Positions 32,478 to 57,390 of a stretch of DNA of 64,000 nucleotides are shown here, in pieces. This DNA comes from Escherichia phage vB_EcoM_FJ1. Both the position numbers and the translations under genes were made by a program. Positions within the stretch are counted from its first letter, which is position 1. Every line of letters begins with the position of its first letter. Location of the stretch: the sequence record MZ170040.1; one strand, 5' to 3'. Below the pieces are notes generated by a model that saw nothing but the letters and a program-made list of their open reading frames with translations, was not told the origin of the DNA and ran no database searches.

Positions 32478-33446
32478 TTATTTCAGAAGAGTAACCTCAG
32501 CGATTTCTTGCCAACCGTTTTTGTCGGTCATAATAAAGTCAGCAAGATAAAGTGCAGTACGCAGTGAAACATTGCGTAAACGGTTAACATTGACTTTCAT
32601 CCATGATAATGCTTTATAAGTTTCTTCATCAGAAAGACCGCGCTTTTGCATCATGTCGGTTGAAAGAATAACATCTTCAACCCTGACCATAATTTCTTCA
32701 TTAGTGTGAACACCCAAATCTAAATAAACTGAGCGGGACACTAATGCTTGTAAATGTGGAGCAAGTTTAGTACCACGGTCTAATTCGCGGTCAATGTCAA
32801 CGTTTGTGATAAAAACAATCGTTCCTTTAAATTCAAACTCACGCTCAATGCCTTTTTCTTCTAAGTAAGAAGATGCAGTGCTCCAGCAGACTTTACGGGT
32901 CTCTCCGGTGTCCAGAGCGGCTTTTAGAAGATTAAGAATGTCCATATCAGAGAAAACATCCACATCATCAATCAAAAGGACAGAATTCTCTTCACGATTA
33001 TTCCAAAGCTGTTCATAAAGACCGATACCAGAGATTTTACCGTTAATGCTTTTATATTCAATGTATCCAATATCATTTGCTTTATTTAAAGCTTTATCTA
33101 AAGAATACGTTTTACCAATACCCGCCGCACCAGAGATAATTAATGAACGAATATTTCCATTAATAATACCATTCGTCATCATTCCCATAACATTAAATCT
33201 TTTATTAATGCGGGTTTTCATATCTTCATACGATTCTTTAACTTCTTCAACTTTTACACCATCATATGAAATGTCTGATTTGTAAACCCAAACACCGCGA
33301 CGTTTACCGTCAATTTCAACAAAAACTTTACCATCTCCTTGTGCATCTACCGGAGCATTATCTGGGAACCATTCGCCTAAGAGCTCAAAAGTTCCAGAGA
33401 TTTCTTTACCGAAGTAGATACCCTTATTGATAGTTACAGTTTTCAT
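32478..33446 (-). CDS. P-loop NTPase (AAA-like)
   Basis: 322 aa; Walker A GAAGIGKTY, Walker B VLLIDDVD; ATG at 33446 with GGAG upstream. Confidence 0.6.
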   Translation of the reverse strand: MKTVTINKGIYFGKEISGTFELLGEWFPDNAPVDAQGDGKVFVEIDGKRRGVWVYKSDISYDGVKVEEVKESYEDMKTRINKRFNVMGMMTNGIINGNIRSLIISGAAGIGKTYSLDKALNKANDIGYIEYKSINGKISGIGLYEQLWNNREENSVLLIDDVDVFSDMDILNLLKAALDTGETRKVCWSTASSYLEEKGIEREFEFKGTIVFITNVDIDRELDRGTKLAPHLQALVSRSVYLDLGVHTNEEIMVRVEDVILSTDMMQKRGLSDEETYKALSWMKVNVNRLRNVSLRTALYLADFIMTDKNGWQEIAEVTLLK

Positions 33447-33775: not shown

Positions 33776-34039
33776 TTATTTTAATTTTCGCCAAATTTTT
33801 ACTGCTTCTCGCCTCGATACTTCTACGGCGCCAAGTTCTATAGCTTTTTGACGACGACTTGCACGTAAGTCATAATGTTTAATGCGTTTATCTTGAAACC
33901 AAGAACGTTTCATTCCTATTGCTTCTGCCATTTCGTGAAGCTCTTCAATATCTCCATCAGTGAACATATGACAATTTTTAGTTGGATGACCGCGAAGTTT
34001 CCATCCATGATTCATTAAAACATCTACGTAAACTGTCAT
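33776..34039 (-). CDS. conserved phage protein (DUF4031-like)
   Basis: 87 aa, MTVYVDVLMNHGWKLRGHPTKNCHMFTD...RSWFQ...HYDL pattern typical of a small conserved phage family. Confidence 0.45.
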   Translation of the reverse strand: MTVYVDVLMNHGWKLRGHPTKNCHMFTDGDIEELHEMAEAIGMKRSWFQDKRIKHYDLRASRRQKAIELGAVEVSRREAVKIWRKLK

Positions 34040-34251: not shown

Positions 34252-34281
34252 AGTTTTGTGAAAAATTTTTGAAATAAAAAA

Positions 34282-34299
34282 GGGAGCCCGAAGGCTCCC
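34282..34299 (-). terminator. GC-stem GNRA-loop hairpin
   Basis: GGGAGCC-CGAA-GGCTCCC directly after the 34302 ORF stop. Confidence 0.55.
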
Positions 34300-34301
34300 T
34301 A

Positions 34302-35315
34302 TCATTTATAATAGCTTCGGTGGTTTTCAAGATAAACCTTCTCAAGGAAGTCATCCCAGAAACCCATGTCTACTTTTTGCTGCATACCGTTCTTAGAAGC
34401 TTCAGTAGATGCTGCTTCTACTTGATCGACCACATCTTCCAAAAACTCTTGAACTGTTTTAAATGGATGTTTACCCAACTTCACGTCGAGAATAAATGGA
34501 GCATCTTGGAGTGGATAAACCAAGTCACCAGTTTTGTAAATTTCCAATAGTTGGAGTCCACCACGGCAGGCATGGCTCAGAGCTTTCCAGTCAATGCCTT
34601 CATTGGCTTCGGCCTTACGAGCGCGTTCACCGTATTCAGCATCTAATTTGTTCAGTGACTGCTTAAGCTCAATAAGAGAAAGCGTTGTCTGATATTTACG
34701 ACCCAACACAGTGTAGAACATTTGTGGGCCTGTTTTCTCATGATTATGGAACACCCATTCACAGAATTCGTTTTCTGGAAGACGATGCTTAATATCTTCA
34801 ACTTTAGTACGACGCTGCTTAATAGAACCATCTTCTTGGTAATCAATCCATTGCTCAGGGATTTGATTAACTACTTTCAATACATCACGTAATGCAGCCA
34901 AACGAGAACCCTTGACGCCATATTTAGAAGCTTGCTTACGGACATATCCTAAATAGGATTTCATGTTAGTCGTATAAAAACGAGAACGGTTGTCTTGAAT
35001 AAACTTCCACACATCAGGCAAATCAGATTTAACCACTAGTTCAGGTGGAGTGTGAAGCATATCCAATGCTACGGTTTCACCATCTGCTGCTAATTTAAAG
35101 AAATATTTAAGACTGTATAGTTCATGGTCAATATCATCTTTAGTGTTTTTAGATGATGTGTTGTTAGTGTTTTTACTCATATGCTCTTTAACATTTCCGA
35201 TAAGAATATCGCGAGCAGGAGGAACAAAGATTTCTTTAAAATCTACATCAGATTCTGGGGTAGAAGTTCCATAAAGATGACTACCAAAATAGCTTTTCAT
35301 TACTGTTTTCATCAT
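34302..35315 (-). CDS. nucleotidyltransferase-fold protein (Pol-beta-like GS...DxD)
   Basis: 337 aa; N-terminal FGSHLYGTSTPESDVDF fits the hG[GS]x9-13DxD minimal NTase signature; helical C-terminal domain. Confidence 0.55.
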   Translation of the reverse strand: MMKTVMKSYFGSHLYGTSTPESDVDFKEIFVPPARDILIGNVKEHMSKNTNNTSSKNTKDDIDHELYSLKYFFKLAADGETVALDMLHTPPELVVKSDLPDVWKFIQDNRSRFYTTNMKSYLGYVRKQASKYGVKGSRLAALRDVLKVVNQIPEQWIDYQEDGSIKQRRTKVEDIKHRLPENEFCEWVFHNHEKTGPQMFYTVLGRKYQTTLSLIELKQSLNKLDAEYGERARKAEANEGIDWKALSHACRGGLQLLEIYKTGDLVYPLQDAPFILDVKLGKHPFKTVQEFLEDVVDQVEAASTEASKNGMQQKVDMGFWDDFLEKVYLENHRSYYK

Positions 35316-35785
35316 TCAGCCTTATATTCAATAACAGGACATACTTTAGCTTTACGAGCTTTTAAAAATTCGACGATAATCGATTTCTTAGGTTGAATAG
35401 GAGGTAAACCTTTATACGCCCTATCAATATTTTCTACGTGTAAAGCATAATCCTTTTTCCATTTATAATCTTTATATTTTTCACGCAGTTGTGCAGGAAT
35501 AACAAATGAACCGATAATAAGTAAAACAAGCAAAATGGCAAGTATAAATGCTGATGGAATAAGAGTCCATAAACTACCAAAAATAAGCCATTTCTGCATG
35601 ATTTCTGCGCAGATAATAGTTAGACCTACGAGTATAGTACATCCGAAAAAAGAAACGAAAAATGTAGGAATAACAATAGACCAAAAATACGCGCACAGTG
35701 TCTTAGGTCGTTGCCATTCATCGTTAAACAATTTGAATAATTTATAGTGCCAAGAGTTTTCATTAATAATCATAATTATAATCAT
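35312..35785 (-). CDS. membrane protein (about four TM segments)
   Basis: 157 aa with multiple hydrophobic helices; stop overlaps the NTase-fold gene start by 4 nt. Confidence 0.5.
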   Translation of the reverse strand: MIIIMIINENSWHYKLFKLFNDEWQRPKTLCAYFWSIVIPTFFVSFFGCTILVGLTIICAEIMQKWLIFGSLWTLIPSAFILAILLVLLIIGSFVIPAQLREKYKDYKWKKDYALHVENIDRAYKGLPPIQPKKSIIVEFLKARKAKVCPVIEYKAE

Positions 35786-36303
35786 CCTTTCATTGAAGGC
35801 GTAACGGTTGTTAAATACTTAATCATAGCTTCAGCTTCTGATTTTGATAATGAAATTTCTCCATTGTTTTGACGAATAGAAATAAAATCCGGATGACGGT
35901 CACCACCGGCTTTTAAAACACACATATAAGTATCAGTTTCATCTTCAATATTTGAAATGATTGAAGCAGTTCCACACGAATGTGGTTTTTGATAAATCAA
36001 TACAGCTTTTCTTCCACCATTTGACTGTTCATAAACTTTTAATACATCAAACAAATCACTTCTTTTATCAATAGCTAAAATGTTGTTTTCATCTTCAATG
36101 TTAAATCCTTCGGATACTTCATAAAGTGTCACCCATAAATCACCTATATCGATAGTAGCATTTTCCTTTCCATGACTTTCAAGAGCATGACAAATTTTCT
36201 TGATTTCGTCATAACTCATTTTAATAATATCATCTCCTTGACTAAGAAAGATGTCATTTTTAAATTCAACACGAATTAAACCGCTTCCACTTGAAATAAA
36301 CAT
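35782..36303 (-). CDS. hypothetical protein (tandem paralog A)
   Basis: 173 aa; C-terminal ...KSEAEAMIKYLTTVTPSMKG resembles the C-terminus of the next ORF. Confidence 0.5.
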   Translation of the reverse strand: MFISSGSGLIRVEFKNDIFLSQGDDIIKMSYDEIKKICHALESHGKENATIDIGDLWVTLYEVSEGFNIEDENNILAIDKRSDLFDVLKVYEQSNGGRKAVLIYQKPHSCGTASIISNIEDETDTYMCVLKAGGDRHPDFISIRQNNGEISLSKSEAEAMIKYLTTVTPSMKG

Positions 36304-36309
36304 ATTTCC

Positions 36310-36852
36310 TCACTTTGAAATCATAGTTGGAATGACAGAATCAAGATAAGTCTTTAACGCAATAGCTTCGTCTTTGGTAAATGTGACAATATGCGCTCGA
36401 AAATCATCAATTTGACGAATAGTTAAGACATCTCCATCTTCATAACATTTTGATACATTTAAAACAGTTTCATCATTCTGATCGCACTGATCGCAAGCGT
36501 TAGTAATAATAGCATTGCAATTTTTAAGCCATTTTAAACTATGTTTTCTTTCATTAGAATAATAAAAATATTTAATGTAAGTTATAAAATTATCCCAATT
36601 ATTAATTGATAAGCATATTGACTCGCTTTCAATGTTAAATCCTGGGCATAAAGAATAGAAATGAATTTTATGCTCATCATTAATGCTTACAATTTTATCA
36701 GTGTAAGGTTTTTCAATTTGGGTTAAATGAATAATTTCGCTAGGCGTAAAATATAGCATATCGTCTTCTTGCGTCAAACGATACATATTATTTACTTTTT
36801 CTATAGCCAATTCACCAAAAAATGAACTAACTTCTAATACTAATCGTTTCAT
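36310..36852 (-). CDS. hypothetical protein (tandem paralog B)
   Basis: 180 aa; C-terminal ...KDEAIALKTYLDSVIPTMISK. Confidence 0.5.
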   Translation of the reverse strand: MKRLVLEVSSFFGELAIEKVNNMYRLTQEDDMLYFTPSEIIHLTQIEKPYTDKIVSINDEHKIHFYSLCPGFNIESESICLSINNWDNFITYIKYFYYSNERKHSLKWLKNCNAIITNACDQCDQNDETVLNVSKCYEDGDVLTIRQIDDFRAHIVTFTKDEAIALKTYLDSVIPTMISK

Positions 36853-38296: not shown

Positions 38297-38314
38297 AGTC
38301 TCCCGAAGGAGACT
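38297..38314 (-). terminator. GC-stem hairpin
   Basis: AGTCTCC-CGAA-GGAGACT. Confidence 0.5.
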
Positions 38315-55369: not shown

Positions 55370-55475
55370 ATATTCCTCATAATGCTTTATAACTGTTGGT
55401 GGTATAATGGGTCTAAATCCCTTCCATTCAATTCCATTTAGAACAAACAACAGAAAAGAATGGAAGATAATAGAA

Positions 55476-56300
55476 TTAGATATTTGACCAGACTTTGTTT
55501 GCAGAGAAACGTTTTCCTTTTGAAACGAACTGCTGAAGTGGCATCAACACAACGTTCGCCCAGTCTTTCGGGGCGATTTCAACAAGGCTACCCATAATAT
55601 TACCAGGTATATATGCCTTAATCATTTGGTCTGCACCCCTAAATCCTTTCACTTGACTCCAATCAATTTTTAATTTCGTTTTATTAGTAATAGTAGGTGT
55701 ATTTGCATATTGCTTTAAAAGCTCTTCTAGAAACTGTTGACGAGCTTTAGGTGGAATATAGTGCAAGTTCAATCCGTACATTAAATTATGCTTACCTAAA
55801 CCAAGGTAAATTATCAAAGGAAATTTATCCCAGTAAGGAAGAGTTTCCTTGTGTTTAGCATCATAAGCAAAAGCATATATTCGTCCCGGCTGCGGGCGAA
55901 CAACTTTATGTCCTTTTACTTGCTTAATAGTTTCAGCAAACCACTTTCTGGTTTTATTATTAATTGCTGCGCCTTCATTACGAATTTTATCACGCAATGT
56001 TTGCCTGAATGAATTTATCATAAGCAGTTGTCTTTCTTGCTTATTGAGTTTATTCATTGGTTTTGATTCAAGCTTTTGAATCTTTTCAGCTGTTTTAATT
56101 CCTGAAGCATATTTTGACATTGCCGAAGTAAACGTAGAGTATTTGATTCCTCTTTCTTCAGCAAATTGCTTTCCTGTCATTCCTTTTGCTTTGGCCTTTT
56201 TGTATTCAAGACCTATCTGAATCCATTTCTTTTCGTTTAATGATTGCTTAACCTTTGGAACTTGGGGAGTGCTTTCATTAATTATTTGAAAAATAGCCAT
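55476..56300 (-). CDS. 2: DNA end protector gp2
   Basis: 274-aa ORF, same size and position as T4 gp2. Confidence 0.8.
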
Positions 56301-56752
56301 TATGCCCCCTTAAAGCCAAGAGCTCGTAATCCATCTTCTGTTAGAATTCTAAATTTTATTCCACGCTTTTCAGCTAAAGCTTGCGCTGCTTTCCATTTGT
56401 CGGTATTAACGGAATATGTATAAATTTCATTCATAAATCTTTTCTTCGCTGCAGTTGTTAGATGTGCTGGTTTAACTGGTGGTTGTGTTTCTTTTTTAGG
56501 TTTTATTTCAATAAAAAATTCTTGTCCAGAAGAATCTTTCATCCAAATATCCATGAAGTATCTACGTTTTTTCCCTTCTGCATTACAAAAATAAGGAATT
56601 ACTGCTGTTTCACTACCCCATGCAATAATTTCTGGATTTTTATCTAACCATTCAAAAAAGAATTTTTCCCAATTTGATCTATACGTAATTTTTTTAGGGT
56701 CACCTCTATATTTTGATATATTTTTAGGAACCCATTTTCCAGAATATGCCAT
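56300..56752 (-). CDS. 4: head completion protein gp4
   Basis: 150-aa ORF, same size and position as T4 gp4; start overlaps the gp2 region. Confidence 0.8.
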
Positions 56753-56763
56753 TGGATTCTCCT

Positions 56764-56771
56764 TATAAATA
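56764..56771 (+). promoter_or_regulatory. late promoter (TATAAATA) for gene 53
   Basis: Plus-strand TATAAATA 29 nt upstream of the gp53 ATG. Confidence 0.6.
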
Positions 56772-56778
56772 GATAATA

Positions 56779-56786
56779 TATTTATA
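56779..56786 (-). promoter_or_regulatory. late promoter (TATAAATA) for the 4-2-3-1-57 unit
   Basis: Minus-strand TATAAATA 27 nt upstream of the gp4 ATG, divergent from the gene 53 promoter. Confidence 0.55.
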
Positions 56787-56799
56787 AACAGGAGGGCCC

Positions 56800-57390
56800 A
56801 TGCTCTTTACATTTTTTGATCCGATTGAATATGCGGCCAAAACGGTGAATAAAAACGCGCCGACTATTCCTATGACAGATATTTTTAGAAACTATAAAGA
56901 CTATTTCAAACGTGCTCTTGCGGGATACCGCTTACGTACTTATTATATTAAAGGTTCACCACGCCCGGAAGAATTAGCAAATGCTATATATGGAAATCCG
57001 CAGTTGTATTGGGTTTTATTGATGTGTAATGATAATTATGATCCGTATTATGGATGGATTACTTCGCAAGAAGCTGCTTATCAAGCATCTATACAAAAAT
57101 ACAAAAACGTAGGTGGAGACCAAATAGTATATCATGTGAATGAGAACGGTGAAAAATTTTATAATTTAATATCATACGATGATAATCCATATGTTTGGTA
57201 TGATAAAGGCGATAAAGCTAGAAAATATCCTCAATATGAAGGAGCGCTTGCTGCGGTCGATACGTATGAAGCGGCTGTTCTTGAAAATGAAAAACTTCGT
57301 CAAATAAAAATAATAGCAAAATCAGACATCAATTCATTTATGAACGACCTTATACGTATAATGGAGAAATCTTATGGAAATGATAAGTAA
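56800..57390 (+). CDS. 53: baseplate wedge protein gp53
   Basis: 196-aa ORF, the T4 gp53 length; first plus-strand gene, followed by gene 5. Confidence 0.85.
   Translation: MLFTFFDPIEYAAKTVNKNAPTIPMTDIFRNYKDYFKRALAGYRLRTYYIKGSPRPEELANAIYGNPQLYWVLLMCNDNYDPYYGWITSQEAAYQASIQKYKNVGGDQIVYHVNENGEKFYNLISYDDNPYVWYDKGDKARKYPQYEGALAAVDTYEAAVLENEKLRQIKIIAKSDINSFMNDLIRIMEKSYGNDK

Follow-up and report, generated by a model that had tools for sequence, protein, structure and literature searches.

An NrdC.11-type, RlaP-family nucleotidyltransferase of Escherichia phage vB_EcoM_FJ1, a probable RNA-end repair enzyme, and the small membrane protein encoded next to it

The locus and its transcription unit

The locus considered here occupies positions 34302-35785 of a 64,000-nucleotide (nt) stretch of DNA of Escherichia phage vB_EcoM_FJ1 (sequence record MZ170040.1; the entire stretch is called the window below), and it comprises two genes. 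One, at 34302..35315 on the minus strand, is known from its open reading frame (ORF) and translation to encode a nucleotidyltransferase (NTase) of 337 amino acids (aa), which we assign below to the orthologues of NrdC.11 of phage T4, a long form of the RlaP-family Pol-beta nucleotidyltransferases, and for which a role in the repair of RNA ends seems probable. The other, at 35312..35785, also on the minus strand, encodes a small inner-membrane protein of the phrog_944 family, 157 aa long if counted from the first ATG. The stop codon of the membrane gene and the start codon of the NTase gene share an ATGA tetranucleotide (35312..35315, minus strand) and, the pair being encoded on the minus strand, it is the membrane gene that comes first (upstream, 5') and the NTase gene that comes second (downstream). 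An earlier reading made from the letters alone (hereafter the sequence-only reading) had recognized this 4-nt overlap, but it had the gene order reversed.

The NTase stop codon is followed immediately by an intrinsic terminator (34281..34300, minus strand), a hairpin with an 8-bp stem, six of whose pairs are GC, a TTCG loop and a T-run tail (TTTTTTATTTC), which reads AGGGAGCC-TTCG-GGCTCCCT and then TTTTTTATTT from 34300 to 34281; the same terminator is annotated in phage vB_EcoM_G9062 (G9062 below). The next terminator-like site upstream on the minus strand is a hairpin at 38297..38314, found in a hairpin scan, and its counterpart in G9062 is annotated between rI.-1 and mobD.5. The transcription unit bounded by these two sites (38314-38297 and 34300-34281) is therefore about 4 kb long and contains about ten ORFs, the NTase gene being the last, with ATGA overlaps chaining three of them (a y05I-like gene, the membrane gene and the NTase gene). 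The strong terminator that had been attributed to the pair is indeed present, directly behind the NTase gene, but it serves the whole unit and is not private to the two genes.

Identity and family of the nucleotidyltransferase

As to the identity of the NTase, it is 97.6% identical over 337 aa to NrdC.11 of T4 (NP_049709; T4 positions 55435..56445), and the two agree in strand and in map position in the nrdC-tk block, with NrdC.10 on one side and MobD.1 on the other, the flanking genes in the window being of the NrdC.10 (AAA) type and of the MobD.1 type. With identity extending over the full length and with flanking genes in agreement, the 337-aa protein can be assigned to T4 NrdC.11 as its orthologue. 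Neither the gene nor the family is new, NrdC.11 having been recognized as a COG3541 nucleotidyltransferase in 2006 (PMC1524935). At the DNA level, the region of 1.7 kb shares 99.6% identity with Escherichia phages slur03 and slur14 and matches 585 phage records, nearly all of them Tequatrovirus and relatives. At the protein level, homologues of the NTase are found in 1564 phage records (tblastn), and at a threshold of E<=1e-3 the family counts 3426 cluster representatives (clusters of 50% identity), a number that falls to 828 at E<=1e-30. Across T4-like genomes, a survey of which had been called for, the NTase gene is conserved, T4 included, and the membrane gene next to it is a lineage-specific neighbour. 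The nrdC.11 gene is dispensable in the laboratory, the segment from nrdC.11 to mobD.3 being lost in a viable genome-reduced T4 (PMC9825161). The sequence-only reading had considered that the protein might prove to be a known housekeeping enzyme of T4, and this comes close: it is a known T4 gene, but a non-essential accessory one.

Three kinds of evidence place the protein in its family. One is the Pfam scan, in which the NTase matches RlaP (PF10127) with 44.1 bits against a gathering threshold of 23 (E=2.6e-11), the match covering residues 7-135 only, equivalent to positions 23-142 of the 249 in the profile. Another is the match to phrog_388, annotated as 'nucleotidyltransferase' (E=9e-137). 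The third is the conservation of the residues typical of the catalytic site. The protein begins MMKTVMKSYFGSHLYGTSTPESDVDF, with G11-S12, ten further residues and D23-x-D25 (G11 S12 ... D23 V24 D25; codons 11-25 at 35241..35285, minus strand), just as the sequence-only reading had described it, and in 67 aligned homologues (34-55% identity) G11, S12, D23 and D25 are invariant, as is D63 (codon at 35127..35129, minus strand), a probable third catalytic carboxylate in the motif DDIDHE, on a beta-strand (residues 61-67 of the model described below). Residue numbers refer to the full-length NTase, alignment numbers being lower by 1. As these five residues are invariant across such diverse homologues, the GS...DxD match is not a chance one. 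In the helical half of the protein, R231, K244, H248, R251 and K279 are invariant in the same alignment. Judged by its sequence, the NTase is a member of the long-form (approximately 320-340 aa) RlaP subfamily that is tied to RNA repair; in a published sequence-similarity network of PF10127, T4 NrdC.11 falls into cluster 5 and the Pseudomonas RlaPs into cluster 1a (PMC12776372).

Two observations concern the records of this gene. In G9062 (L002 6104-7118, L numbers being our locus labels), the NTase gene shifts frame near codon 20 relative to the window, and the annotated coding sequence, of 323 aa, begins past the GS motif, reflecting either a sequencing error or an inactivated copy. In the GenBank and UniProt annotations of the matches, many NrdC.11 orthologues carry the propagated label 'thioredoxin', and one is called 'HNH homing endonuclease'.

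Predicted fold and structural comparisons

An AlphaFold2 model of the NTase, computed from the 67-homologue alignment, has a mean predicted local distance difference test score (pLDDT) of 94 and a predicted template modelling score (pTM) of 0.81. The model consists of an NTase core (residues 1 to about 115), a long helix (118-150), a beta-rich insert (154-208) that lies outside the stretch matched by PF10127, and a helical C-terminal domain (213-335). By analogy with the Pol-beta fold, D63 would be the probable third metal ligand. The NTase fold proposed from the sequence is thus borne out by the model and the fold comparison as well as by the Pfam match.

Sequence searches of the PDB, with the NTase itself and with the 67-sequence profile, returned nothing meaningful. 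Among solved structures, HalB is the best structural neighbour, and no CD-NTase or cGAS structure is found among the best structural matches of the model. Kanamycin nucleotidyltransferase ANT(4') and the two-domain NTases of the MNT/HEPN type (1kny, 6un8; 3c18) likewise have a helical (HEPN-like) domain behind the NTase domain, completing the cleft of the active site, but they differ in showing only 8-13% identity, TM-scores of 0.27-0.34, small-molecule substrates and no family match at the sequence level.

Membership in three other groups was considered and rejected. For the aminoglycoside NTases, there is no family-level match. For the CD-NTases of the cyclic-oligonucleotide-based anti-phage signalling systems (CBASS), there is neither a family-level match nor a hit in PADLOC, which returned nothing for the NTase (at E<=1) or for the membrane protein. 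For the MntA antitoxin (type VII toxin-antitoxin systems), the NCBIfam model scores 13.2 bits against a cut-off of 60, and the neighbours of the gene are the membrane gene and the terminator. The CD-NTase, MNT and signal-synthase readings entertained at the outset thus find no support in the fold, NCBIfam or PADLOC comparisons.

Cellular relatives and the link to RNA repair

Two RlaPs of Pseudomonas (P. fluorescens and P. aeruginosa) have been characterized in a December 2025 preprint (bioRxiv 10.64898/2025.12.29.696909 = PMC12776372). These enzymes add one or two nucleoside monophosphates (NMPs) to the 3'-OH ends of RNA, with Mn2+ serving best, and do not act on DNA or protein; with a nicked tRNA mimic they favour the 5' half, and they partly rescue the aminoacylation of a tRNA without one anticodon-loop nucleotide and also label full-length tRNA and rRNA in total RNA, with little specificity for the nucleoside triphosphate (NTP) (PMC12776372). 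RlaP has been proposed as an antidote to ribotoxins such as RloC, which excise a nucleotide after cutting (PMC12776372), and phage RlaPs were predicted to restore the nucleotides removed by RloC ahead of ligation (Iyer et al., 2021, PMC7824862), a prediction that, as cited in the latter paper, goes back to Burroughs and Aravind (2016).

For cellular relatives, one genome per species was scanned, yielding 80 loci with full-length relatives of 32-53% identity, and these match PF10127 over their N-terminal half only, as the phage protein does. Besides the ubiquitous genes for histidine kinases, ATP-binding cassette (ABC) transporters and helicases, the recurring neighbour families are RtcB, Pnkp, Hen1 and Ro60/TROVE, one or another of which is found within 6 kb in 14 of the 80 loci (neighbour clustering). 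One example is the Hen1-Pnkp-NTase operon of L212, L228 and L237; in L212 the NTase gene overlaps the Pnkp gene by 4 nt, and its product and the window protein share 36% identity across 329 residues (E=7e-69). In L193 and L233, as another example, the NTase occurs together with Ro60 and RtcB. As it is the full-length relatives that sit in the Pnkp/Hen1, RtcB and Ro60 operons, the NrdC.11 long form itself is tied to RNA repair. The identity, fold, catalytic residues and family membership of the phage protein, and the RNA-repair neighbourhood of its cellular relatives, are established by these comparisons.

The phage NTase resembles the RlaP family in its Pol-beta NTase core with GS...DxD...D, in its predicted C-terminal helical domain, in a Pfam match above threshold and in having relatives in RtcB, Pnkp-Hen1 and Ro60 operons, and it differs from the Pseudomonas RlaPs in being of the long form, in its beta insert, in matching the Pfam profile partially, in belonging to cluster 5 as opposed to 1a, and in that no ligase is encoded beside its gene in the phage. 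In the inspected part of the window (32-42 kb), no RNA ligase gene was seen near the NTase gene; slur03, the closest phage genome, is annotated with an RNA ligase (gp63) and a polynucleotide kinase.

The cellular loci also reveal a tandem arrangement, in which a long-form NTase (310-335 aa) is directly followed by a short paralogue (approximately 250-290 aa), often with a 4-nt overlap. This arrangement is found in about 18 of 71 cellular loci, including L163, L178, L187, L193, L211, L212, L214, L215, L230, L231, L236 and L237. The short paralogue that was checked against Pfam (L193:6976-7743, following the long form at L193:6001-6972) matches PF10127 over the full length, and L234:5979-7784 looks like a fusion of the long and the short forms (601 aa). 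This suggests distinct, cooperating roles for the two forms. The phage carries the long form only.

Linkage of the two phage genes

As to the pairing of the NTase with a membrane protein, its significance was judged from 78 IMG/VR loci fetched with the NTase and 78 fetched with the membrane protein. A membrane homologue is encoded at most 4 kb upstream, on the same strand, in 39 of the 78 NTase loci, being directly adjacent in 10 and separated by one to three unrelated genes in the other 29, and Pfam scans of these intervening genes came out mostly empty. The 39 NTase loci without a membrane gene mostly encode more distant NTases, with identities under about 55-60%. Conversely, no NTase gene lies within 6 kb of the membrane gene in 48 of its 78 loci, and four genomes harbour both genes at a distance of 60 kb or more. 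No conserved partner of the membrane gene emerged from 44 NTase-less loci, and no membrane homologue recurs beside the NTase relatives in the set of 80 cellular loci.

One telling example is T4 itself, in which the slot upstream of nrdC.11 is occupied by the HNH homing endonuclease gene mobD, overlapping the nrdC.11 start by 17 nt; the window and most Tequatroviruses have a second y05I paralogue and the membrane gene there instead. A remnant of the membrane gene was sought in T4 and was not found. When T4 55435-57208 (L001:13436-15209) is set against window positions 35312-36303, mobD exactly replaces the membrane gene and the adjacent y05I paralogue, consistent with displacement of about 1 kb of accessory genes by mobD in T4.

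The overlap itself is not informative either. Overlaps of 4 nt make up 10 of approximately 39 gene junctions in the 42-62 kb region of T4, and an unrelated gene upstream shares 4 nt with the NTase start in at least 25 of the 78 NTase loci, so the ATGA overlap is generic packing. We conclude that the pairing results from accidental synteny, does not amount to a dedicated module of two genes and is a poor guide to function, and that the membrane protein is an independent accessory inner-membrane protein of the phage, located beside nrdC.11 in Tequatro-, Mosig- and Dhakavirus-type genomes by happenstance.

ProQ is an RNA chaperone. In some of the more distant T4-like phages, the stop codon of a gene with the Phage_ProQ_C_like domain (PF24203; L040:3624-4001, L045:3576-4004) overlaps the NTase start. 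This domain may bind RNA, and its gene could be a more meaningful partner of an RNA-end NTase than the membrane gene.

The membrane protein

The membrane ORF of 157 aa contains a hydrophobic core of 70 residues, and its translation probably starts at M5 (35773), as in most homologues, which would give a protein of 153 aa. The protein matches phrog_944 (E=6.5e-50) and phrog_22816 and is a typical member of this family (RB32ORF096c-type), with no assignment in Pfam, NCBIfam or PADLOC. Homologues are encoded in 937 phage records (tblastn), and its BFVD matches are all uncharacterized and come from diverse phages (of Vibrio, Pectobacterium, Acinetobacter, Acidovorax and Klebsiella). In an AlphaFold2 model (pLDDT 88.6), two long helices (26-65 and 68-120) form a hairpin, accompanied by a short N-terminal strand and helix and by a C-terminal helix and strand. 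According to the model, the chain crosses the membrane twice, as two transmembrane (TM) helices, and its two ends share one side, which from the basic tail is presumably the cytoplasmic one. The sequence-only reading was correct in describing a multi-pass membrane protein; the approximately four TM helices it counted are not supported by the model.

In the alignment of the family, an N-terminal motif (INxNSWHYK...P..LC.Y) and a C-terminal motif (K.K.CP..EF) are conserved, and the hydrophobic core, with a single variable loop, is poorly conserved. Residues H13, C31, Y33, K147 and C149 (157-aa numbering) are invariant or nearly so across this very divergent family, and the conserved His, two Cys and Tyr are in the N- and C-terminal segments, on the same predicted side of the membrane, which hints at a small metal-binding or redox-sensitive cytoplasmic domain. 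The two-TM topology, the termini on the same side and the basic tail would also fit a class II holin, but the protein has no homology to named holins, the conserved His/Cys motifs at its termini are atypical of them, and slur03 already has an annotated holin. The phage contig of L056, to which L144 also belongs, carries the membrane gene twice, as paralogues at L056:2931-3413 and L056:5312-5734, one upstream and one downstream of the NTase gene. The membrane protein of T2 is mislabelled as 'Prohead core protein'.

Proposed role and alternatives

Overall, the reading we favour, with a probability of about 0.6, is that the NTase is NrdC.11, an RlaP-type restorer of nucleotides at RNA ends, and that the membrane protein is an independent accessory. 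By homology to the Pseudomonas RlaPs, the NTase would act at RNA ends, its two-metal site (G11-S12, D23-x-D25 and D63) extending the 3'-OH of broken RNA by one or two untemplated NMPs. Hypothetically, its targets in vivo would chiefly be the 5' tRNA halves left by a cut in the anticodon loop, after which the polynucleotide kinase-phosphatase and RNA ligase 1 of the phage would reseal an anticodon loop of full length, and this activity would be relevant where an anticodon nuclease of the host, such as RloC, not only cuts but also takes out a nucleotide. The T4 pathway of tRNA repair, in which Pnkp and Rnl1 counteract PrrC, may thus have a third component, NrdC.11, for coping with nucleotide-excising nucleases such as RloC. 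The idea of NrdC.11 as a third component is already in the literature (PMC7824862, PMC12776372), and the window adds no new concept to it; what is added here is that the NrdC.11-type long form is embedded in cellular Pnkp/Hen1, RtcB and Ro60 operons, often in tandem with a short canonical RlaP, and that the pairing with a membrane protein is judged to be accidental.

Several observations weigh against this view. One is that pnk and rnlA are not adjacent to the NTase locus in slur03, being approximately 80 kb away. Another is that, given a Pfam match limited to the N-terminal half and the beta insert, the substrate or the product could differ from those of the characterized Pseudomonas enzymes; the crystal structure of PfRlaP was not found in the PDB copies searched, and a literature search found no biochemical or genetic experiment on T4 NrdC.11 or the orthologue described here. 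As to the independence of the membrane protein, it is found in 426 records at >=80% identity, compared to 498 records for the NTase at >=90% (tblastn), which corresponds to an apparent retention of approximately 85% at the Tequatrovirus level, with tight adjacency stable in those records; such retention leaves some possibility of a lineage-specific functional link.

The alternative that survives best, an unlikely one in our view, is that the NTase modifies the 3' ends of intact RNA, such as the acceptor ends of host tRNAs, in the manner of a shutoff factor or toxin (MenT/AbiEii-like), or acts on a substrate other than RNA (as ANT, LinB, DrrA or GlnE do). The labelling of full-length tRNA and rRNA by the Pseudomonas RlaPs, with little NTP specificity, agrees with the former, and the beta insert outside the Pfam-matched stretch could confer a different substrate. 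Against these stand the position of the full-length relatives in Pnkp/Hen1, RtcB and Ro60 operons, the preference of RlaP for the 5' half of nicked tRNA, with protein and DNA unlabelled, and the 13 bits scored by the MntA model against its cut-off of 60; a phage dependent on host translation would, moreover, gain little from blocking tRNAs.

It is very unlikely, in turn, that the NTase and the membrane protein form a functional two-gene module, either one similar to Hailong, in which the NTase HalB makes an oligonucleotide that gates a TM channel, HalA (as reviewed), or a membrane effector or exclusion device under the control of the NTase product, as the sequence-only reading had proposed on the strength of the pairing. 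The order of a TM protein followed by an NTase, with a 4-nt overlap, does agree with the listing of HalA and then HalB in the review, most Tequatrovirus records, like the loci of Mosig- and Dhakavirus type, keep the two genes adjacent, and the NTase ends in ...SYYK, HalB priming on a tyrosine. However, the C-terminal tyrosines are not conserved across the NTase family, whose tails are variable, T4, whose NTase is 97.6% identical, has mobD where the membrane gene would be, and adjacency is limited to some enterobacterial T4-like lineages, the two families occurring independently, and far apart, in other phages, as the counts given above demonstrate. Neither protein matches a defence or signalling model, including those in PADLOC, a PDB search with the NTase profile brings up no HalB sequence, and the predicted 153-aa, two-helix hairpin has the appearance of neither a channel nor a protein with a crown domain. 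Hailong (HalA/HalB; PDB 9dbh, 9dbj) is, besides, a host defence encoded by an obligate operon, whereas this pair is phage-encoded and unlinked in most of the phages that have either gene.

A still slighter chance can be given to a joint action of the two proteins confined to the Tequatro-, Mosig- and Dhakavirus lineages and separate from RNA repair, where the two genes form a single translational unit, with a short oligonucleotide from the NTase gating or tethering the membrane protein, or serving as a decoy that keeps the Hailong-type channels of the host closed. Least likely of all, the NTase could make or destroy a nucleotide second messenger, as a CD-NTase-like enzyme or in counter-defence against CBASS or Pycsar, but it has nothing beyond the generic Pol-beta NTase fold in common with CD-NTases, PADLOC gives no hit, the family-specific Pfam match is RlaP, and the neighbours of its cellular relatives are RNA-repair genes and not those of CBASS.

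Other genes of the region

On the far side of the terminator are two further genes. One encodes an 87-aa DUF4031 protein (33776-34039), absent between nrdC.10 and nrdC.11 in the T4 annotation, and the other is the NrdC.10 orthologue (32478-33446), whose matches to P-loop NTPase models of the AAA/STAND type are weak and stay below threshold.

Upstream of the membrane gene, the window carries two tandem y05I/MobD.1-type paralogues on the minus strand, both matching PF24449 and PF24448 ('putative transcription factor'), where T4 has one. The first (35782..36303) ends in a 4-nt overlap of its stop codon with the first ATG of the membrane ORF, and the second (36310..36852), 83% identical to T4 MobD.1, is its orthologue. 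A y05I-type gene is found directly upstream of the membrane gene in approximately 21 related loci. Propagated mislabelling has affected this family as well, the MobD.x/y05I genes being called 'molybdopterin-guanine dinucleotide biosynthesis protein MobD' in the databases.

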